64,000 nt of DNA, taken from the NCBI GenBank assembly GCA_000004695.1, contig CM000155.2, positions 3,538,380 through 3,602,379 on the forward strand, written 5' to 3'. The stretch's first letter is position 1. Every line of letters starts with the position of its first letter. This document shows positions 33,731 to 49,146 of this stretch, piece after piece. Below the pieces are notes generated by a model, which saw only the letters and a list, made by a program, of their open reading frames with translations, was not told the DNA's origin and did not search any database. A program made the translations under genes and the position numbers. This stretch comes from Dictyostelium discoideum (Eukaryota).

Positions 33731-34022
33731 AAAAATTAATGATTATATTTTTTGATGGTGAAGAAGCATTTAAAGAATGGAGTGACACAGATTCATTATA
33801 TGGTTCCAGACATTTAGCAAATTTATTATTGGATAAAAAAGTAATTACCAAAGATAATGAAGATTTACCAATTAGTAGTAGTTTTTATAATACAGTTGAG
33901 GCTTTTATATTATTGGATTTATTGGGTACTCCAAATCCAAGATTTTATATGTTTAATAAAAAAACTGAATCATTATTTAAAAAATTATCTGATATTGAAG
34001 ATAAATTATCTTTAAAAAGATT
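33731..34022 (+). CDS. glutaminyl cyclase exon 2
   Basis: The acceptor is aattttag| at 33729-33730. [26 protein letters not shown] matches human [26 protein letters not shown]. The donor is tt|gtaagtg at 34023. Intron 1 contains an (AAT)23 microsatellite at 33655-33723. Confidence 0.8.
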
Positions 34023-34029
34023 GTAAGTG

Positions 34030-34097
<68 letters not shown>

Positions 34098-34129
34098 TAT
34101 AATAATAATATTTAAAACAAAAAAAATAG

Positions 34130-34355
34130 TATAAGTCCAAAAGCAAATAAATACTTTCAAAATCATTTTATTGGTTCAGATATTCAAGATGATCATATAC
34201 CATTTTTAAACTATGTACCAACATTACATATTATTCCTTACCCATTTCCAAATGTTTGGCACACTGAAAAAGATGATGAATCTTGTTTAGATAAAAATAC
34301 AATTGAAGATTTATCAAAAATATTTAAAATATTTGTTGGTTCTTATTTAATATAA
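34130..34355 (+). CDS. glutaminyl cyclase exon 3
   Basis: The acceptor is aaaatag| at 34128-34129. …[36 protein letters not shown] matches human [37 protein letters not shown]. The stop codon is at 34353-34355. Confidence 0.8.
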
Positions 34356-34408
34356 AATAAATAAAAAATTAAAAATTAAAAAAAGTAAATACATGTATTT
34401 AAATGTTG

Positions 34409-34445
<37 letters not shown>

Positions 34446-34464
34446 TTTTAATTTTATTTTATAA

Positions 34465-34818
34465 TTAACTAATTTTTAAACCATTTTCAATTTTTGAATC
34501 TGGTGATAATAAAATTACATCTCCTTCTTCTTTACCTAATGCACCTAATACTAAACATTCAGACATAAATTTTCTACCAATTTGTTTCTTTGGAAAATTT
34601 ACAACGGCAACAATTTGACGATTTACTAAATCTTCTTTATTATATCTCTTTGTAATTTGTGCCGAGGATTTACGAATTCCAATGGTTTCACCAAAATCAA
34701 TGGTTAATTGGTAGGCAGGTTTTCTTGCTTCTGGGAAATCATCAACTTGGATTATTGTTCCAACTCTCATATCCACTCTTTCAAATTCCTCCCATTTTAA
34801 ATCTCTTTTATCTTCCAT
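34465..34818 (-). CDS. stand-alone tRNA-binding domain protein (Myf/EMAP-II/CsaA/Trbp111-like OB fold)
   Basis: 117 aa with an ATG start. VDMRVGTIIQVDDFPEARKPAYQLTIDFGE…NRQIVAVVNFPKKQIGRKFMSECLVLGA follows the tRNA_bind pattern (compare [29 protein letters not shown]…). Confidence 0.65.
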   Translation of the reverse strand: MEDKRDLKWEEFERVDMRVGTIIQVDDFPEARKPAYQLTIDFGETIGIRKSSAQITKRYNKEDLVNRQIVAVVNFPKKQIGRKFMSECLVLGALGKEEGDVILLSPDSKIENGLKIS

Positions 34819-35320
34819 TGTTTTTTTTTTTTTTTTTTAAGTCTTTTTAAATTAAATGCCAAATTGGATTTTTAATTTTTAATTTTTTGTTTCGAAACTA
34901 AACAAAAAAAAAAATAAAAATAAAAAAATAAAAATAAAAAAAAAAAATAAAAAAAAAAAATAAAAATAAAAAAAAAAAAAAAATAAATTAATATTCTGGA
35001 ATAAGAAAATCTAAAAAAAGATACTTGTTTTTTTCTCAAATTAACGAATTTTTTAAAAAATTTATAATATAAAACCTACTATTTTTCTAATAATTTTTAC
35101 CTTTCATACCAAAAAAAAACAAACAATTTTAATTTATTTATGAATATGATTAATGAGATCTCATTTTATTTAATTCTAAGGTAGAAAGTTTAAAGCATTA
35201 TAATAAAAGTAAAGTGTTTAGTGTCGCTATGTATTACGTTACGTGTTTTTATTAAATTTGTTTTTAATGTTTAAGATTTTTGTCATCCTTCAAAAAATTA
35301 GCTTTAACTTAATTCGTTTT

Positions 35321-35687
35321 TTTTTTTTTTTGAATTGGATAACGCAATTATTAGTTGCTTCTCCTTGAGATGCTAGATCTCATTTTATTTTTATTTTTAT
35401 TTTTTTTTTTTACAGGGTCTCTAAAAGAGGGGTTAGTTTACTTTTTTTTTTTTTTTATTATTTTTTTTTTTTTTTTTTTTTTTTCGAATTTTGAATTGTA
35501 TTATTACTTTTGATTAAAATATGTCCAAGGAGATTTTTGCTTTAACCCATCAATATGAGCAGTGTATATTACTTCCTACTCTTGATCTAGGTCCTCTATG
35601 TATTTACGAGCCCTCAGGGTATCGGACCGTTGTCCTAGGGTGTGCAAGTCAATCTCTTAACCCTGCACTATCAGGGGCCCATTAACT
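35321..35687 (-). mobile_element. 5'-truncated poly(A)-terminated retroelement remnant (TRE5-like position) with a 13-bp target-site duplication, about 40 bp upstream of tRNA-Phe
   Basis: The direct repeat ttaacttaattcg occurs at 35308-35320 and 35688-35700. The insert begins with T15 (poly-A on the minus strand). It is GC-richer (about 40%) than its surroundings. It carries a 58-codon plus-strand ORF (35526-35702, uses ccc/ggg/cgg codons). Its 5' end faces the tRNA gene. Confidence 0.5.
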
Positions 35688-35726
35688 TAATTCGTATTAA
35701 AGTGTTAAAAATATAAATTTCACTAA

Positions 35727-35800
35727 GCCTTAGTAGCTCAGTTGGTATGAGCGTGAGACTGAAGATCTTAAGGTCGCTGGTTCGATCCCGGCCTGAGGCA
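35727..35800 (+). tRNA. tRNA-Phe (anticodon GAA)
   Basis: GCCTTAG|TA|GCTC|AGTTGGTAT|GAGC|G|TGAGA|CTGAAGA|TCTTA|AGGTC|GCTGG|TTCGATC|CCGGC|CTGAGGC|A folds as a canonical cloverleaf with 7/4/5/5-bp stems, U33, G37, a GTTCGATCC B box and an A box TAGCTCAGTTGG. It is very similar to yeast tRNA-Phe. No CCA is encoded. Confidence 0.9.
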
Positions 35801-35830
35801 ATAATTTCAAAAGAATAATCATCGGATCGT

Positions 35831-35845
35831 AAGTTCGATTCCTGA
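35831..35845 (+). promoter_or_regulatory. external B box (ex-B) downstream of tRNA-Phe
   Basis: aaGTTCGATTCCtg lies 34 nt past the tRNA 3' end. Dictyostelium tRNA genes frequently carry a second, extragenic B box 20-40 nt downstream; this is established knowledge for this genome. Confidence 0.6.
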
Positions 35846-36006
35846 TTAGGGATATAACAGTCACTGCAAAAATATAAAAAAGAAAAAGATTGAAAATTAA
35901 TTCTTTCAATTTTTAAGACCCAAACTATTCCTTAAACAAATAATCAAATTAAGAAAATTAACCTACAAAGTCAGAATTAGTACTACCAAATATTATACTG
36001 TAATGG

Positions 36007-39000
36007 AATGTCAGAGGTTGGGGCACTGACACCTCCTTCAAAAACAAAACAGACTTTATCAAATCCCAATCCCCCCCAAACTCATTGGCACTAACCATAG
36101 TCAATGAACTCAACGCCGACGCAACACAAGCACACCAGCTATTCCCTGGCTCCATCATTAGCGCAACCAAAAGAGGCAACGGAATAGGAATACTAAACCA
36201 CAACAACCAAAACATAAAACTCTCACCAATATTCATAATAGAAGGTAGACTAATAATATCAGACATTCTAATAAAAGATACCACAACGAGAATCTTGGCC
36301 ATATACGCCCCGGCCCAACCTGATAAAAGAAAAACACTAGCTTCAACACTAAACAAACACTTCAACAACCAATACCACAACCTAACGTCTAACCCTAAAA
36401 AAAACATNGACATCATAGCAGGCGACTTCAACTGTTTAGACTTCAATGACAATCACACATCAAATGATGACCAAGGCAACTTGACAACACAATCCCCAGA
36501 TGAGATGGCCACAGTAATCGAAGCCATCAGAATTTCAAATAACCTAATGGATATGGACCAACTAAATAAAAGACCCACCTTCTCAAGAACGATACACAAC
36601 ACAAACAATAACCTCACAAGAATCTTGGAAAGGAGACTAGACAGAATATACCTTAACAATAGCNTAATCAACTACAGCCAATTATACTTAAGGAACCTAA
36701 TCCCCCCAAAAATTAACGACATACCTCTATCAGATCACAACTTCCTATCAACCACTTTCACTCTACCCAACATACAGATGAACAAGCGCAGATGGAGATT
36801 AAAAAAATCCTCAATCCTCTCAAGCATAATGCTTAAGAAAATAGACTTCCTACTTAACGATTATTCAAGGGAGCTGTCATCCAACCATAACTCTATTTCC
36901 TTCTCTCAACTCAACAGCTTACTNAACAAAATAAAACAACTATACACNGAATTTCAAAAACAAAACGACTACAACAATAAGGCAAACATCAAAAATCTAA
37001 TCTCCCTACTAGAGACAGAATTTAAAGACCAAGCCTTCGCAACCCTTTCAGCAATAAATGAATCTAAAAAAAGAGAAGAACAACTTAAACAAGAATTGAA
37101 CAACTATTGCGAAGAAACCTCACTCAAGTACATCTCCGCGAGAATCAAGAAAAGACACAATGATTTCACCATCAACGCAGTAAAAGATGCACAAGGTAGA
37201 ACAATTAACAAACAGGAATTGATCGAAGAAGAATACGTAAAATATTACTCAAATCTTTATGACTACAAAGAAGATGACCCACTATCTCATTACGAAATGT
37301 TGGAAAATTGGACAGTGACCAGGGACTCAACATGGGACAACCTTGAAAATGAATTCACCTCACAAGAAATCCTAGAAGTAATAAAACAACTGAACCCACA
37401 CAAATCTCCAGGTCCAGATGGAATTCCAAACTTATTCTACATAACACACAAAGAAAAACTAGCTCCAATACTGGCCTCAGCATTCAACGACACTCTAAGA
37501 AATCCTCATCTAATTAGCAAAAATTACAAAGAAGGCCTCATTATCACGATACCTAAAAAGGGAGACCCCGAACTAATCAAAAACAGAAGACCAATTACAC
37601 TGGCTAACTGTATATATAAAATCCACTCAAAGCTAATAAACAATAGAATAATCCCAATACTAACGAAAGTGATCAACCACAATCAAAAAGGTTTCGTACC
37701 AGGCAGATTCATTCTAGATAATATCATATCAATGAACGAATTAATCAACTATTGTAATGATAAAAGAATTAACGGAATAATTACACTATATGATTTCGAA
37801 AAAGCTTTTGACTCGATCTCACACGGTTCAATACTTAGATCACTACAACACATCAACATTCCAACCAATATAATCAACCTGATAATGAATCTACTCACCA
37901 AATCTGAAGCAAGAATTGAAATTAATGGTAGAACTACTATACCCTTTGAGATCAAAAGAGGAGTTAAACAAGGAGATCCACTATCACCCACCCTGTTCGT
38001 CCTTGTAATAGAGGCTTTAGCTAGAAAAATTTTACAAGATGACCGAATTACTGGCCTTCCTCTAAACAACAGCAACCACAGAGAGAAATTCCAAAGCTTT
38101 GCAGACGACTCGGCTTCAATGGTCCCAGACTCTCAACAACTTGAATTAGTACTACAACACTTCAATTCATTTTGCAAAGCCACTTCCTCAAAACTAAACA
38201 TCGACAAATCTTCATCAATTCTTATAGGCAACCCAGACAATACCAACCAAAGAATTCCAATATCTACAAATCCAGAAAGATACTTGGGATACTTCTTCAC
38301 AGGCAAAGGGATAACAAGAAAAATGCCAGAAATATTAAACACAATAAGATCATCCTTAGTACTATGGAAAACCACTGACTCAACAATCAAAACCAAAACC
38401 AACATCCTCAAAGCATTCGCACTCTCTAAATTAACCTACTATTCATATGTAGAGAACTTTAAGGAAGAGGAATTAAACCAAATCAATAAATTAGTCGAAT
38501 GGTTTTTATCGGCACCAAACAACAAAAATGCTAGTGGATTTCAAGTTATTAATTTAATGAGAACCAAAAGAGCAAGATACCCACTAAAAGTAGGGGGCTG
38601 GAACATTTGGAATATAGAATTGAGACAACTGGCGCAGAAACTTTGGATCATAAACCAGTTCATCCTAGCACTAGAAACCAAACAAACAAACTCATCTCAT
38701 CACAAAAGCTGGGAATATCAGATCCAAAAAAACAAATTCACATCCAGATACCTAAAAGAAAACTTAGACGAATGGAACAAAATAAGAATAAAAAAAGCAA
38801 TCTTCAACAATAATCTCACATCCATAAAAAACGAAAATGGACAACCACTTTCACTGGCAGAATGGTATACCACAATTCAAGACCAAAATCCAACCATCCC
38901 TAAAACGGAATTCCAATCATCTCTAAACTTAAGAGGCTACAGCTATAATCAACTCTTCAACAACATACTGAAGATAAAAGACCCTAAAACAAGAGACACA

Positions 39001-39827
39001 ATGTTTAGATTCCATGCCAGATGCCTTCCAATAAACTACCTTCACAACAAACAATGCCCACTCTGCAAAGAAGATATGAGCAAAGACCCATACGGTCACC
39101 TGTTCTTCTCATGCAAGAAAACAAAACAATTCATAAAAATAAATAAACTCAAAAATTTCATCTATATTACCACAGGCAAAGGTAAAAACTGGCATCATAC
39201 AAGAATTAGGCAAAATAACAATTTCATTAATAGAATAACTCCAAAATTATCACCGACAGCCAAAAAAGATCAAGAAGTGAATGCAGATTACGCCAACCAC
39301 AGATTCCACAAAGAATACTTTGAATGGAACTATAAAGCAATAGACTATGATCTAACCAGATCATTCGCATATAGAAACCTAATGGCCCTTATCCTCCACA
39401 ACATTTGGATTTGGATTTGCAATCAAATATACAGTGAAGATCCTTTAACAAATGAATCACTATCATACAGCTCCCTTCTAAAGAAATGGCACAAATTGGC
39501 CACTCTAGAATACATCAAAAAAGCAAAAGATCTGAAAAACTTATCAGCAAAAGACCATAATAATTTCAAAGATCCTAAGATCCTTCTCACCTCAACGATC
39601 AAGCTAAGAAAAACAACAGCTAATTACTATTGTATTCCAGAATCATCTCTCCCAAATATTATATCTTTTGATCAATTCATATGATTAAAATAACCCTTCA
39701 GCTTAAATGATAAGCCTATAAATAAATATTAAATAAAAACTCGTATTAACACAGATGGACATATATCAATCTTGTTAATCCAATATTAAAAAAAAAAAAA
39801 TATTATACTGTTGATTTATACACCAGA
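36007..39827 (+). mobile_element. TRE3-like tRNA-gene-targeted non-LTR retrotransposon, 5'-truncated (no ORF1), same orientation as and downstream of tRNA-Phe
   Basis: Base composition jumps to GC-rich at 36007. It contains a single 1199-codon APE+RT ORF, a 3' A13 tract at 39781-39793, and is bounded by agaattagtactaccaaatattatactgt repeats. Ambiguous n bases at 36418, 36664, 36924 and 36958 indicate consensus assembly of a repeated element. The subfamily was assigned by position and orientation only. Confidence 0.6.
36085..39684 (+). CDS. retroelement ORF2: apurinic-like endonuclease + reverse transcriptase + C-terminal Cys-rich domain
   Basis: The N-terminal block …IAGDFNCLDFNDNH… is EEP/APE-like. 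The RT motifs are …PITLANCIYKIHSKLINNR…, …YDFEKAFDSISHGS…, and FADDSA (the YxDD box). The C-terminus CPLCKEDMSKDPYGHLFFSCKKT is a zinc-knuckle-like segment. Confidence 0.8.
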   Translation: MALTIVNELNADATQAHQLFPGSIISATKRGNGIGILNHNNQNIKLSPIFIIEGRLIISDILIKDTTTRILAIYAPAQPDKRKTLASTLNKHFNNQYHNLTSNPKKNXDIIAGDFNCLDFNDNHTSNDDQGNLTTQSPDEMATVIEAIRISNNLMDMDQLNKRPTFSRTIHNTNNNLTRILERRLDRIYLNNSXINYSQLYLRNLIPPKINDIPLSDHNFLSTTFTLPNIQMNKRRWRLKKSSILSSIMLKKIDFLLNDYSRELSSNHNSISFSQLNSLXNKIKQLYXEFQKQNDYNNKANIKNLISLLETEFKDQAFATLSAINESKKREEQLKQELNNYCEETSLKYISARIKKRHNDFTINAVKDAQGRTINKQELIEEEYVKYYSNLYDYKEDDPLSHYEMLENWTVTRDSTWDNLENEFTSQEILEVIKQLNPHKSPGPDGIPNLFYITHKEKLAPILASAFNDTLRNPHLISKNYKEGLIITIPKKGDPELIKNRRPITLANCIYKIHSKLINNRIIPILTKVINHNQKGFVPGRFILDNIISMNELINYCNDKRINGIITLYDFEKAFDSISHGSILRSLQHINIPTNIINLIMNLLTKSEARIEINGRTTIPFEIKRGVKQGDPLSPTLFVLVIEALARKILQDDRITGLPLNNSNHREKFQSFADDSASMVPDSQQLELVLQHFNSFCKATSSKLNIDKSSSILIGNPDNTNQRIPISTNPERYLGYFFTGKGITRKMPEILNTIRSSLVLWKTTDSTIKTKTNILKAFALSKLTYYSYVENFKEEELNQINKLVEWFLSAPNNKNASGFQVINLMRTKRARYPLKVGGWNIWNIELRQLAQKLWIINQFILALETKQTNSSHHKSWEYQIQKNKFTSRYLKENLDEWNKIRIKKAIFNNNLTSIKNENGQPLSLAEWYTTIQDQNPTIPKTEFQSSLNLRGYSYNQLFNNILKIKDPKTRDTMFRFHARCLPINYLHNKQCPLCKEDMSKDPYGHLFFSCKKTKQFIKINKLKNFIYITTGKGKNWHHTRIRQNNNFINRITPKLSPTAKKDQEVNADYANHRFHKEYFEWNYKAIDYDLTRSFAYRNLMALILHNIWIWICNQIYSEDPLTNESLSYSSLLKKWHKLATLEYIKKAKDLKNLSAKDHNNFKDPKILLTSTIKLRKTTANYYCIPESSLPNIISFDQFI

Positions 39828-39901
39828 ATTAGTACTACCAAATATTATACTGTTGATTTATTTATTAACTATCTTAATCTCAAAAAAATATTTACTCCAC
39901 A

Positions 39902-39953
<52 letters not shown>

Positions 39954-40454
39954 TTAAATTCATTAAACCTAATAATTACTGTTTATTTCCTTAATGGATA
40001 AACATTGATTAATCATTATAAAAATAAAAAAATAAAAAAAACTACAAAAAAAAGGTAGGAAATCTAACATATTGCCATAATAAATTTGAAATTAATTTAT
40101 CCCCAAATACTTTTTTATATAAATTATAAATGTCCTCCATTATAATTTAAAATGAATGATGATAAATAAAAAAAAATAAAATGTCTATTAATTATTTGTT
40201 TAAAGATTCGATAATATTATTTGATTAAAAAAAAAAAAATAAAAATATTTCATATGAAATTTACTTTTCTAAAAAAAAAAAAAAAAAAAAAAAAATATTT
40301 GTTTTCAAAAAAATTCTAAAAAAAAAAAGGTTATTTAGAATTGGATTTTTTTGGTTAATTTTAAATAAAATAATTATAAAAATTAATTTTAGGCGTCTCA
40401 TTTAATAGGTTATTTATATACTACAAGAATAAATTAAAATTTTATTGGTGATTA

Positions 40455-40634
40455 TATTTTATCTGATTGGTCGTCAGAATCTAAAAATGATTCAAGTTCT
40501 TCTTTGTTTGGATTTTCAATAACTATATTCTCTATTGTTACTTCTGAACCAGTATTTGATTCTGATATTGAATTATTTTGTATATTATTATTTATATTAT
40601 TATTTTTATTATTATTATTATTATTACTATTATA

Positions 40635-40667
<33 letters not shown>

Positions 40668-40851
40668 TTGATTATTTATATTATTATTTATATTATTATT
40701 ACTATTATTTAAATTTTTTGGTGGATTTGAAAATTTTCTTTCTTTTTCAGATAATAAATTTTCAAGATCTTTTCTTTCTTTTAATATTTTTTCTCTTTCA
40801 AACTTTTGATATTGTAATGATAAATCTTCTTGAAGTTTATTAAGTTCAAGT
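40455..40851 (-). CDS. coiled-coil protein, 3' exon (poly-N tract)
   Basis: The acceptor is ttttttaag| at 40852-40853. The phase-2 join gives …DSLKK-LELNKLQEDLSLQYQKFEREKILKERKDLENLLSEKERKF…SDDQSDKI-stop, with the stop at 40452-40454. The antisense Y-rich ORF 40535-40843 in the track is spurious. Confidence 0.5.
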
Positions 40852-40922
40852 CTTAAAAAAAAAAAAAATATATTAGTAAAAATAATAAAAAAAAAACAAA
40901 TAATGATGATAATAATAATTAC

Positions 40923-41557
40923 TTTTTTAAAGAATCAAATTTAATAATTTCAGATTCTTTTTTATCTTTCCATTTTGATAATTCACTATCTAAATAATTA
41001 TCAATATCTAAAGATAAATTAATTTCTAAAGATTCAATTTTTGAAATGATTGAATCTAAATTTAATTGAATGGTTTCAACCAAAGTGTTGAGTTCACCTA
41101 ATTTTGAAAATTCAGCATCAGCTTTCTTCCAAACATCATGTTGATAGGCACAAACTTTAATTAATTCTGGAAACTTTTTATCAACCTCTTCAGCATGTTC
41201 TGCAAGTATTTGACCATTGATTCTAATTTGTTTTAATTTTACTTCAAAGTTTCTTAATAATAAAGTACCATTATATAAATCTACCTCTTTTAAACTATCT
41301 TTTTGTTGTGAAACATTTGGTATTGATTGTGGATTCATATAGAGAGGGTTGGTAACAGATGATGTTAATGAGGAAACTGTAGATAATACTGATGCTGGTA
41401 CTTCAATATCTTTAATTGTATCCATCTCCAATCTTAATGAACTATTTAATGCTTGAACAACTGTTGATTCTTTAATTGCATCAACCATTGGTTGGTAATT
41501 TAAATTGGTTGGATTTAATGATTTTAATGTTTCTGTTAAATTTTCTGTAGTTGTCAA
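40923..41557 (-). CDS. coiled-coil protein, upstream exon (5' end incomplete: track start is TTG and the frame stays open through an (AAT)n tract)
   Basis: This is the 212-aa ORF. The donor is aaaaa|gtaatt at 40922, giving a 71-nt intron at 40852-40922. Upstream the frame reads …PQQQPQSQQLPQENNNN… after a candidate acceptor attttag| near 41800. Confidence 0.5.
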
Positions 41558-41582
41558 TGATTCATTTGTATTTAATGTTGAT

Positions 41583-41638
<56 letters not shown>

Positions 41639-41641
41639 AAT

Positions 41642-41749
<108 letters not shown>

Positions 41750-42373
41750 TTCTTGTGGTAATTGTTGAGATTGAGGTTGTTGTTGTGGTGATGATAAAAT
41801 TGTACTCTTTCTAATTGACTCTGTACTAAAATTTTTAATTTTAATTTTAATAAATTAATAAAAAAAATAAAAATTAAAATGAAAAAAATAATGAAAAATA
41901 AGATTTACGTTTCTTCAAATTTTTTTAAAAATGATTTAAACCTTTTTAAAATATATAGTGGCAATAACAAATAATTATTTGAATGTATAAAAAAAAAAAA
42001 ATATCAATGAAAAAAAAAATAAAATAAAATAAAATAAAAAAAAAAATGAAAAATCAAAAAAAAAAAAAAAAAAAAAAAAAAAAGATTTTTTTTTTTTTTT
42101 AAATTGCAGTTTTTATTTTTTTTTTTATTTGGAAACTAAATTTAAAAAGGTTTTTTTTTTTTTTTTTTTTTTTTAATCAGATTATTAACTTTAAAGTAAA
42201 TTTTTATAAAAAAAAAAAATGATTAAAGTTGGAAATTATCTTGATCAAAAAAATAAAAAAAAAAAAAAAAAACAAATAATATCTTTGAAATAATTTATCC
42301 ACACTTTATTTAGTTTTTTTATCCATTTATACAGTTTTTTGAAAAGTTTAATTATGAATCATAGAACCCCCTA

Positions 42374-48361: not shown

Positions 48362-48621
48362 TTGGGGAATTTTTATTTTTATTTTTTTATTTTTTTGGGG
48401 GGATATTTTGAATTAATTATTTAAACCAAAAAAGAATAAATGTTTTCAAATTTACCCTACAATTAATATAGAATAACCTCAACATATCCTTAAATTTGGT
48501 CAAAAATAATGATTTTTTTTTATAGTCTTTTTTTTTTTTACCTAAAAGCGGGGTCTTTTTTTTTTTTTTTTTTTTTTAATAGTCAAAAATAATGAGAAAA
48601 ATAAATAATTTTAAAAAAATA

Positions 48622-48695
48622 TGTCATGGGCAGGACTCGAACCTGCATCTTATTCGTTAGGACCGAACCGCTTTATCCAATTAAGCCACCATGAC
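48622..48695 (-). tRNA. tRNA-Arg (anticodon CCT)
   Basis: The reverse complement GTCATGG|TG|GCTT|AATTGGATA|AAGC|G|GTTCG|GTCCTAA|CGAAT|AAGAT|GCAGG|TTCGAGT|CCTGC|CCATGAC|A forms a cloverleaf with U33-CCT-A37 and a B box GGTTCGAGTCC. Confidence 0.8.
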
Positions 48696-48744
48696 ATTTT
48701 CAACATCATTCATTATCATTTGATCGTACTTAATTTTTTTTTGA

Positions 48745-49014
48745 GTAAGAGAAAAAACATCAACAACAACACTTTTTTTATTTGATTATTTCATTTTTCA
48801 TATAAAAAAAAGACTTAAAAAAAATAAAATAAAATACACTTAGAGTAAACTTCTTTATTTCTTTATTTTATTGTAATTTATTTTTTTCTTTTTTTTGAAA
48901 ATTTTGCGAAGCAAAATTGAAAAAAAAAGGAAAAAATAATCAGTAAGAGAAAAAACATCAACAACAACACTTTTTTTATTTGATTATTTCATTTTTCATA
49001 TAAAAAAAAGACTT

Positions 49015-49018
<4 letters not shown>
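48745..49018. repeat. two copies of a roughly 75-bp direct repeat (48745-48820, 48943-49018) on the 5' side of tRNA-Arg, adjacent to an assembly gap
   Basis: agtaagagaaaaaacatcaacaacaacactttttttatttgattatttcatttttcatataaaaaaaagactt appears twice. An N100 gap at 49047-49146 follows immediately. Confidence 0.8.
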
Positions 49019-49046
<28 letters not shown>

Positions 49047-49146
49047 NNNNNNNNNNNNNNNNNNNNNNNNNNNNNNNNNNNNNNNNNNNNNNNNNNNNNN
49101 NNNNNNNNNNNNNNNNNNNNNNNNNNNNNNNNNNNNNNNNNNNNNN
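49047..49146. other. assembly gap (100 N)
   Basis: A run of n. Confidence 1.

Follow-up and report, generated by a model that had tools for sequence, protein, structure and literature searches.

How did a tRNA-Phe gene of D. discoideum come to stand between two retroelements, and what is the element upstream of it? The window (the whole stretch of DNA that was analysed, 64 kb) has at this place an overall layout that is textbook for the organism: about 61% of D. discoideum tRNA genes carry a TRE, 13% both a TRE5 and a TRE3 (PMC5006619), and a tRNA gene with a downstream TRE3-A is routine. The upstream element, headed by a sequence called here module S, is not routine. The features of the gene itself are as follows.

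35727..35800, + strand: tRNA-Phe(GAA) gene (ARAGORN; Rfam RF00005, 63.6 bits, E=2e-12)
35779-35789, + strand: internal B box of the tRNA-Phe(GAA) gene, GGTTCGATCCC
35832..35842, + strand: external B box aGTTCGATTCC, 32 bp 3' of the tRNA end, read directly

The gene yields a cloverleaf with internal A and B boxes and has a second B box downstream, the two marks of a Dictyostelium tRNA gene with an external B box. The external box differs from GGTTCGANNCC by one mismatch, and the perfect GGTTCGATCCC occupies the matching place in the orthologous loci of two D. discoideum-labelled strains, L002 and L004; a syntenic tRNA-Phe was found in seven related genomes. ARAGORN, Rfam and the sequence itself thus agree with the preliminary description on the gene and its external B box, placed there at 35834-43. 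The overall arrangement given in that description also stands, although its coordinates are 1–6 nt off. Since the same structure is present in L003, an independent assembly of the same lineage (99.3% identical), an assembly artefact is excluded.

The downstream element is the simpler of the two.

36002..39787, + strand: 5'-truncated TRE3-A, 99.6% identical to positions 2498-6282 of L001
39788..39800, + strand: A13 tail of this copy, from the sequence; its final 1-3 A's are possibly part of the target-site duplication (TSD)
36004..39684, + strand: ORF2 frame, open except for four N's, without a start codon
~36160-36738, 37549-38292 and 39055-39114, + strand: APE domain, RT domain and CCHC knuckle of ORF2

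The order APE–RT–zinc finger in ORF2, together with the oligo(A) tail, is that of a non-LTR retrotransposon: RVT_1 is matched at E=1e-33, Exo_endo_phos weakly (0.004, below the cut-off), and the CCHC knuckle was read directly. The copy lies 201 bp downstream of the tRNA in the orientation of the latter, as is usual for TRE3. It is most likely TRE3-A, an assignment based on length, on the number of copies and on its being distinct from another TRE3 family. The full-length relative in L001 measures 5221-5233 bp and has a 416-aa ORF1, and the published lengths are 5229 bp for TRE3-A, 5279 bp for TRE3-B and 4734 bp for TRE3-C (PMC5006619). The ORF2 protein falls into the largest cluster found (79 members), with top matches in D. 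discoideum at 100% and 99% identity, and is only 40% identical to the TRE3 family containing GenBank AAD43057 'pol'. TRE3-A (formerly Tdd-3), a tRNA-gene-targeted non-LTR element of the L1 clade, shares with our copy the site, the orientation, the APE, RT and zinc knuckle of ORF2, the oligo(A) tail, 5' truncation, a short TSD and, in the full-length relative, a length of ~5.23 kb, and there is no essential difference between them. The copy is without ORF1 and the frameshift region, and is situated towards the upper limit of the distances published for TRE3-A, 14–228 bp from the tRNA (PMC5006619). Much of its distance is made up by an AX4-specific segment of ~90-100 bp (35848-35950). In the alleles that lack the element the homologous target site is ~110 bp downstream of the tRNA, and other TRE3-A copies, four in D. 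citrinum and one in ACTFIT, stand ~85–145 bp downstream of tRNAs.

The preliminary description was right in calling this element TRE3-like; its orientation is canonical and its distance lies within the range. It started the element at 36007, whereas the true start is 36002, and it gave a complete APE–RT ORF2 without ORF1, of which the absence of ORF1 holds but the completeness does not, as the entry region and the start codon of ORF2 are missing. The copy begins at the WNVRG motif, 22 nt past the ORF1 stop, so that the first ~1436 nt (the 5' UTR, all of ORF1 and the ORF1/ORF2 overlap) are lacking. It is immobile on its own.

The repeats around the TRE3-A copy are more complicated.

35972..36001, no strand: 30-bp repeat CAGAATTAGTACTACCAAATATTATACTGT, left flank of the TRE3-A copy
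35988-36001, no strand: favoured TSD, left copy, (AA)ATATTATACTGT, the last 11-14 nt of the 30-bp repeat
39800..39811, no strand: favoured TSD, right copy, ATATTATACTGT, directly after the A13 tail
39812..39861, no strand: rest of the target tandem duplication, TGATTTAT-ACACC-AGAATTAGTACTACCAAATATTATACTGT-TGATTTAT (repeat families D5 and D8; also in L003)

The 30-mer CAGAATTAGTACTACCAAATATTATACTGT occurs at 35972-36001 and again at 39824-39853, about 4-5 nt away from where it had been placed before, and the 12-mer ATATTATACTGT occurs three times, at 35990, 39800 and 39842, with 0.06 occurrences expected. The comparison with empty sites that the preliminary description had proposed could be made in L002 and L004. 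Both strains lack both elements, and each target sequence is single-copy in them, at the TRE3-A site as AGAATTAGTAC(TAC)CAAATATTATACGATTGGATTAC. These alleles are ~9-10% diverged from the window in the flanks. In the more distant orthologous loci L005–L008 the flanks are unalignable and give no information on the TSD. The flanking repeats are not element termini, as had been correctly proposed: the other TRE3-A copies examined end in ...CCAATATT(A)n and those of D. citrinum in ...CCAATATTT(A)n, which, together with the single-copy state of the empty alleles, rules the opposite out.

Two readings of the duplication had been offered, an unusually long TSD and a TSD of about 12-13 bp in a target with a tandem repeat, and the second fits the evidence better. 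We favour a true TSD of 11-14 bp, (AA)ATATTATACTGT, in a target already holding a ~42-bp tandem duplication, because in five other TRE3-A copies the TSDs are 7–17 bp long and each starts in or next to an A-run. That the ~42-bp duplication pre-dates the TRE3-A insertion is something that we infer, since L002 and L004, diverged by ~9-10% in the flanks, are without it. The long TSD seems rather unlikely. In that case TRE3-A would have made a 30-bp TSD, CAGAATTAGTACTACCAAATATTATACTGT, and the 24-25 nt after the poly(A), TATTATACTGTTGATTTATACAC, would be filler that arose at integration by copying of nearby target plus four untemplated nucleotides; an AX4-related allele would then have had a single pre-insertion copy of AGAATTAGTACTACCAAATATTATACTGTTGATTTAT. 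The perfect 30-bp repeat on both sides of the element speaks for such an event, as does the single-copy state of the sequence labelled W-X-Y in the outgroup alleles L002 and L004. However, the duplication would start here with a C after ...AAAGT, unlike the A-run starts and the 7–17 bp of the five other copies, and a 12-mer identical to the left junction stands directly after the tail, like a normal TSD. Filler would moreover be unusual at a 3' junction, as PMC5391098 (its S2 Table gives de novo integration counts only) reports additional nucleotides for 5' junctions, and the region is prone to slippage, L004 having a W-like duplication of its own.

The upstream element lies on the other strand and is bounded by a TSD of its own.

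35304..35316, no strand: 13-bp TSD TTAACTTAATTCG, left copy, one of two exact copies in the window
35317..35331, - strand: A15 tail (T15 on the + strand), from the sequence
35332..35485, - strand: TRE5-A C-module with the terminal three-stem hairpin region, by match to L010-L016
35486..35522, - strand: final 37 nt of the TRE5-A B-module, 94.6% identical to the 5' and 3' B-module copies of L010-L016
35523..35527, - strand: zone where module S joins the TRE5-A tail; ambiguous homology, GGACA microhomology
35528..35681, - strand: module S, the 5' end of the composite element; 45% GC, extra T at 35681
35682..35694, no strand: 13-bp TSD TTAACTTAATTCG, right copy

The 13-mer TTAACTTAATTCG occurs in the 64 kb exactly twice, at 35304-16 and 35682-94 (0.00 expected), and its homologue TTTACTTTATTTG is single-copy in the empty-site allele L004. 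The insertion thus spans 35317-35681, T15 plus a 350-nt body (35332-35681) with no sense-strand ORF; it had been put at 35321-35687. It stands head-to-head with the tRNA at a distance of 45 bp, and its TSD has 13 bp, which agrees with published TRE5-A integrations (47±3 bp upstream, TSD of 10–16 bp, 5' end facing the tRNA). The earlier estimate of 30-40 nt was too short, the distance being 45 nt, or 32 nt if counted from the end of the TSD.

The 3' part of the element, ~190 nt, is that of TRE5-A, the end of a B-module followed by a C-module with the three-stem hairpin. The seven copies used for comparison, L010-L016, were validated as TRE5-A.1 by an ORF1 of 444 aa with I10 and a duplicated B-module; of the published primers, Rep-75 matches them exactly, Rep-176 and Rep-109 with one mismatch each. 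To these copies 54 of the last 55 nt are matched, and the whole 206-nt tail shows 87-90% BLAST identity, the alignment differences with L010 and L014 being A-run lengths. The hairpin has nucleotides T15, C26, A35 and C38 and stems I–III as published for TRE5-A.1 (PMC3159450). On the other hand, nothing in L009-L016, a set with whole TRE5-A elements in it, matches nt 1–159 of the element. Hence the TRE5 class assigned in the preliminary description is borne out by position, orientation, TSD length and the B/C tail, but a simple 5' truncation is not, as the 5' ~155 nt are not TRE5-A.

Among known elements TRE5-A (DRE), especially the non-autonomous TRE5-A.2 (AB-ORF1-BC), is similar in its position 45 bp upstream, its head-to-head orientation and 13-bp TSD, and in a 3' end that consists of the B-module's end plus the C-module, whose hairpin retrotransposition requires. 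It differs in the 5' part, which in the window is the unrelated module S and not an A- or B-module or ORF1, and in that our element has 350 nt and no TRE5-A coding sequence. TRE5-C also has a 3' C-module and a target upstream of tRNA genes, and is present in AX4 as partial 879-bp copies only. Its type of C-module has a hairpin 3 nt shorter (GAGATCTATCTC in L023), and the reported identity with that of TRE5-A is only 78%; the tail in the window is of TRE5-A type, with the end of the B-module included.

Module S recurs outside the window. A phmmer search with a 54-aa antisense ORF (35521-35685), which belongs to no Pfam family, retrieved P0274 and P0275, and the loci of both show S at the 5' end of TRE5-tailed composites. 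Over nt 1-155 of the 568-nt S that begins the composite in L022 (D. cf. discoideum), the window copy shows 90% identity, and S is also present in L021. Elements of ~1.25 kb in D. cf. discoideum have the layout S–ORF2 remnant–B–C–poly(A), with the 568-nt S as their 5' end, in L022 within the TSD ATTGTAGTGGTATA; a clean TSD was not found around the L021 composite. The 5' terminus GGGCCCC is common to the window and L022, with one extra T before it in the window.

The two parts could in principle have arrived separately, a 5'-truncated TRE5-A first and a fragment of another repeat (S) later, exactly at its 5' end. TE nests are indeed common at Dictyostelium tRNA genes (L001, L016, L022). However, one perfect 13-bp TSD pair encloses both parts, a second TSD or poly(A) is absent, both parts are missing together at the empty site, and S is joined to a TRE5 tail inside one TSD in L022 too, which makes two events very improbable.

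As to the nature of S, it is absent from TRE5-A.1, TRE3-A and L023. A TRE5-A A-module or an inverted (twin-priming) TRE5-A piece was rejected, as S has no match on either strand of eight full TRE5-A loci. So was, as far as testable, the 5' part of TRE5-C: the autonomous, TRE5-C-like ACTFIZ element in L023, which bears a C-module, is without S. Known RNAs (tRNA, snRNA, SRP, rRNA) were rejected on Rfam, with no match at E<=5-10 and a negative tRNA model at E<=10, and on relaxed ARAGORN, also negative; the fold z-score of S is -1.2. Comparison of S with 19 Pal-series primers from part 1 of S1 Table gave no match, which within that set argues against the A/B-box loci of the rDNA palindrome. Bacterial or plasmid DNA found no support in BLAST, and exact-pattern scans of JGI metagenomes for S were negative. 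S might come from one of the catalogued repeats of Dictyostelium, for instance DDT-B, for which an A/B-box motif is reported.

Motifs of this kind are seen in S itself.

35660-35670, - strand: A-box-like TAGTGCAGGGT in module S
35618-35628, - strand: B-box-like GGTCCGATACC in module S

Their 43-nt spacing is tRNA-like. L021 and L022 have a perfect B box and an A box with a single mismatch; in the window copy the boxes are degenerate. The S head of L021 has a second TRE5 copy ~47 bp upstream, in head-to-head orientation, an arrangement like that at Pol III genes.

The S-headed, TRE5-tailed elements suggest, at the level of sequence, a non-autonomous and possibly SINE-like family. With tRNA-derived SINEs carrying LINE tails, and with U6/L1 chimeras, the upstream element has in common a 5' head with A/B-box-like motifs, a short body, a 3' tail also found in an autonomous partner of LINE type, poly(A) and a TSD. 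The tail is as in SINEs: it is shared with autonomous TRE5-A, and the element is non-coding, has 350 nt, an A15 and a 13-bp TSD. The head is not recognisably tRNA, having neither cloverleaf nor tRNA homology but only the A-box-like and B-box motifs; three copies were seen, and the 1.25-kb composites of the sister lineage are long for a SINE. A full-text literature search gave no description of a Dictyostelium SINE, and to our knowledge there is none.

The three S-bearing copies have three different S/TRE5 junctions: in the window S is joined at ~nt 155 to the B-module end, in L022 and L021 at nt 568 to ORF2 sites 40 nt apart. With only three copies and all junctions different, repeated formation of chimeras fits as well as a family with deletions. 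In mammals U6/L1 chimeras arise by template switching. The upstream element might likewise be a one-off chimeric retrocopy, for which the TRE5-A reverse transcriptase copied ~200 nt of TRE5-A RNA in target-primed reverse transcription (TPRT) and then switched to S, an RNA of unrelated origin, cellular or derived from a transposon, continuing to its 5' end. Besides the junctions, the GGACA microhomology is consistent with a switch, and the constant 5' end of S and its constant 3' end in L021 and L022 would suit a discrete RNA; the Pol III-type boxes of S also speak for this reading. Nevertheless, we think this improbable: the same order and orientation, S followed by the TRE5 B/C tail, is found in two lineages, the whole layout S–ORF2 remnant–B–C common to L021 and L022 suggests descent from a master copy, there is no oligo-U tract at the 3' boundary of S, and TRE5-A is reported to have no processed pseudogenes (PMC3159450).

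The explanation that we consider probable, taken as a whole, is that the tRNA-Phe(GAA) gene was hit twice by tRNA-gene-targeted non-LTR retrotransposition (TPRT), both times after the AX4 lineage had split from the two other sequenced D. discoideum-labelled strains, and that the window copy upstream, with an internal deletion, belongs to a non-autonomous composite family which depends on TRE5-A and whose RNA has a defined 5' end. Downstream, a nick in an A-rich site would have been the starting point for reverse transcription of TRE3-A RNA, an early stop of cDNA synthesis would have left a copy without the first ~1436 nt, and a second nick 11-14 bp away would have produced the TSD (AA)ATATTATACTGT; the 30-bp repeat and the third partial copy would be there because the target already held the presumed ~42-bp tandem duplication. 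Upstream, a 350-nt RNA with a TRE5-A 3' end would have integrated head-to-head with the tRNA, 45 bp away, giving a 13-bp TSD; TRE5-A ORF1 and ORF2 proteins docked on TFIIIB presumably acted on it in trans. The C-module hairpin is needed by TRE5-A for retrotransposition.

A more specific version, possible but doubtful, is that S and the TRE5-A B/C tail together make up a SINE-like family of the D. discoideum species complex, in which the Pol III-type A/B-box head drives its own transcription and serves as a TRE5 landing pad, while the tail borrows the C-module hairpin for the TRE5-A machinery.

The empty-site alleles show that both insertions are young and make the question of the TSD answerable. 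TRE5-A has been described as highly specific for its own RNA, and it is reported to produce no processed pseudogenes (PMC3159450). From the upstream element we infer that the TRE5-A machinery has mobilised RNAs with a foreign 5' part. A family needing only the B/C tail, if true, would show what minimum is required in cis under natural conditions. Should the S head be a functional Pol III promoter, the family would be a SINE-type parasite of TRE5-A and, at the same time, a new class of TRE5 target.

The window has a G+C content of 22% and encodes the same proteins as Dictyostelium discoideum AX4, e.g. DDB_G0293956. In an independent assembly (GCA_054883475.1) from the same lineage, the region 34000-42000 is matched at 99.3% with identical architecture, hence the structures at the locus are real and not assembly artefacts. 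The four N's within the downstream element read C, T, G, C in that assembly. The two tRNA genes considered here and the B boxes are as follows.

tRNA genes and B boxes (window positions)
35727-35800, forward strand: tRNA-Phe(GAA) gene, on which ARAGORN and Rfam agree
35779-89: internal B box of the tRNA-Phe gene
35832-42: external B box aGTTCGATTCC, 32 bp beyond the tRNA-Phe gene, one mismatch in the window
48621-48696, reverse strand: tRNA-Arg(CCT), the second tRNA gene

Two other strains have a perfect external B box (GGTTCGATCCC) at their orthologous loci, and the syntenic position holds tRNA-Phe in all seven related genomes fetched. In loci from other species (L006, L007), TRE5-type C-module fragments of their own are present upstream of the orthologous gene, e.g. 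L006 2295-2474, 73% identical to the tail of the upstream insertion in the window. Thus the same tRNA-Phe gene has been targeted independently in several lineages.

The preliminary description placed a TRE3-like element without ORF1 downstream of the tRNA gene. Indeed, 36002-39800 can be aligned over its whole length, at 99.6%, with a part of a longer copy (L001), which extends about 1436 nt further in the 5' direction, encodes an ORF1 of 416 aa, and is 5221-5233 bp long depending on the count of terminal A's. For comparison, TRE3-A is published as 5229 bp long, TRE3-B as 5279 bp, and TRE3-C as 4734 bp (PMC5006619). The ORF2 protein cluster of the element has 79 members; GenBank "pol" AAD43057 belongs to a cluster with only 40% identity to it. 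By length, abundance, and difference from the latter cluster, the copy is most likely TRE3-A. It starts at the endonuclease WNVRG motif, 22 nt past the ORF1 stop, and hence has neither ORF1 nor the ORF1/ORF2 overlap, both present in the full-length copy. The "complete APE-RT ORF2" attributed to it is thus not supported. The frame is open through 39684 and contains RVT_1 (E=1e-33), a weak endonuclease match, and a CCHC knuckle.

Empty-site alleles come from two strains labelled D. discoideum (L002 from GCA_054859385.1, L004 from GCA_054859355.1). Each of them lacks both insertions, encodes an identical neighbouring protein of 117 aa, and has flanks with about 88-96% identity to the window. The TRE3-A copy is situated 201 bp downstream of tRNA-Phe, in the same orientation as the latter, which falls within the range of 14-228 bp published for TRE3-A (PMC5006619). 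The homologous site of the empty alleles lies closer to the tRNA, at only about 110 bp, since AX4 has additional 90-100 bp or so at 35848-35950. This segment, which separates the external B box from the target of TRE3-A, was either inserted in the AX4 lineage or deleted from the other strains.

Other TRE3-A copies terminate with ...CCAATATT(A)n, and those of D. citrinum with ...CCAATATTT(A)n; hence all sequence past A13 is target DNA. The downstream sequence of L002 and L004, ...AGAATTAGTAC(TAC)CAAATATTATACGATTGGATTAC..., contains W-X-Y once, while the order in the window is P-C-W-X-[TRE3-A, A13]-X-Y-ACAC-C-W-X-Y, where P stands for the upstream flank of the repeat (...AACCTACAAAGT) and C for a lone C separating P from W. 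Thus the flanking repeats are duplicated target, as had been proposed, and not element termini. The target-site duplications (TSDs) of five other TRE3-A copies are 7-10, 9-11, 9-10, 15-17, and at most 12 bp long, and all five begin within or beside an A-run. We favour a TSD of 11-14 bp, (AA)ATATTATACTGT, as it follows the same A-run pattern and directly adjoins the tail. A 30-bp TSD is less favoured, as it would begin with C and require a 24-25-nt filler at the 3' junction. Of the two options considered initially, we thus prefer the second, a short TSD in a repeated target; the target would have held a tandem duplication of about 42 bp before the TRE3-A insertion. L004 has its own W-like duplication, GAATTACATACC, and hence the region is slippage-prone.

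To the right of the target, 39862-40075 is not alignable with L002 or L004 until 40076, and contains an A46 run (39906-39951). Possible explanations are a local rearrangement or what is left of an older poly(A) element after extreme truncation. Tandem nests elsewhere illustrate how a single landing site is used repeatedly: a pair of consecutive short TRE5-A C-module fragments (L001 6959-7203), and two TRE3-A copies (L016 640-1090), the second beginning directly after the TSD of the first and 9 extra nt.

The upstream insertion is flanked by the TSD TTAACTTAATTCG, observed exactly twice in the window (0.00 expected) and having one homologous copy in L004. The insert consists of T15 and 350 nt. 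As T15 is on the forward strand, the sense strand is the minus one, and the 5' end faces tRNA-Phe, 45 bp away. This distance, the 13-bp TSD, and the head-to-head orientation resemble those published for TRE5-A integration (47+/-3 bp, TSDs of 10-16 bp, head-to-head), in agreement with the TRE5-class position and orientation suggested earlier. As a reference we used seven validated TRE5-A.1 copies (L010-L016): their ORF1 has 444 aa, beginning with MKITNNTTNI, with I10 as published (PMC3159450); primer Rep-75 matches exactly, Rep-176 and Rep-109 with one mismatch each; and the B-module is duplicated. The 3' 206 nt of the insert are the last 37 nt of the B-module, the C-module, and an A15 tail; in the alignment with L010 and L014, the differences seen are in the A-run lengths. 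Folding of the last 54 nt gives three stems; T15, C26, A35, and C38 occupy exactly the positions given in the mutagenesis paper (PMC3159450). TRE5-C was rejected as the source of the tail: its type of C-module hairpin is 3 nt shorter, and hence the tail is of the TRE5-A type.

The 5' 155-159 nt of the insert (module S, 45% GC) have no match in the TRE5-A, TRE3-A, and TRE5-C-like loci, Rfam families, E. coli and plasmid DNA, or JGI metagenome contigs. The antisense strand of S is an open frame of 54 codons. To trace relatives, we searched 1.8 billion proteins with it, using phmmer; it yielded two weak hits, both gene-caller artefacts in D. cf. discoideum. In the D. cf. discoideum locus L022, a 568-nt GC-rich S forms the 5' end of an S-[~130 nt ORF2 3' end]-B-C-poly(A) unit enclosed in a 14-bp TSD, ATTGTAGTGGTATA; L021 contains a second copy of the composite, with the ORF2 part 40 nt longer. 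Compared with S nt 1-155, the window S shows 90% identity; it also has the GGGCCCC 5' terminus in common with the L022 copy, one extra T preceding it in the window. Hence the element, described initially as 5'-truncated, is not truncated at this end, and its 5' part is not TRE5-A. Either it is a composite that has undergone internal deletion, or it is a chimera that formed independently.

In L021 and L022, S carries an A box with one mismatch (TAGTGCAGTGG, nt 10-20) and a perfect B box (GGTTCGATACC, nt 53-63), both degenerate in the window copy. S was rejected as a tRNA, Rfam and ARAGORN being negative. In L021, the S head has another 5'-truncated TRE5 about 47 bp upstream of it, in head-to-head orientation, which suggests that the S head is bound by Pol III factors. 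The S-bearing elements may be a non-autonomous, perhaps SINE-like, family. The second of three readings is that the S/TRE5-A elements are recurrent template-switch chimeras. Finally, S may be a fragment of a catalogued repeat; a candidate is DDT-B, reported to hold an A/B-box motif targeted by TRE5-A.

Several other features deserve mention. DDB_G0293956 (34465-34818, reverse strand) is a single-exon gene encoding a 117-aa tRNA-binding-domain protein (CsaA-like, PF01588), 85-87% identical to Flavobacterium tRNA-binding proteins and 89-97% identical to the orthologues in D. citrinum, D. dimigraforme, and D. firmibasis. By these identities, it looks like a bacterium-to-dictyostelid gene transfer; with GC of 30%, the gene is already adapted to the host genome. 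Directly upstream of tRNA-Arg(CCT) is a ~73-bp direct repeat (GAGTAAGAGAAAAAACATCAACAACAACAC...AAGACTT; 48743-48816 and 48945-49016, about 200 bp apart), followed by a long A-run and a 100-N gap (49047-49146); the arrangement probably reflects one more repeat or insertion, unresolved in the assembly, at the TRE5 position. An apparently autonomous TRE5 of D. cf. discoideum (L023 7471-7616), in which a 1568-aa gene model fuses ORF1 and ORF2, resembles the reported TRE5-C fragments of AX4 in having a 3-nt shorter C-module hairpin and no 3' B-module. Thus this sister lineage may still hold full-length TRE5-C.

Both TRE types are found at 13% of D. discoideum tRNA genes (PMC5006619), and the locus taken as a whole is ordinary for this species. 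The exception is the TRE5-A-tailed element, whose 5' module is foreign and carries promoter-like motifs.
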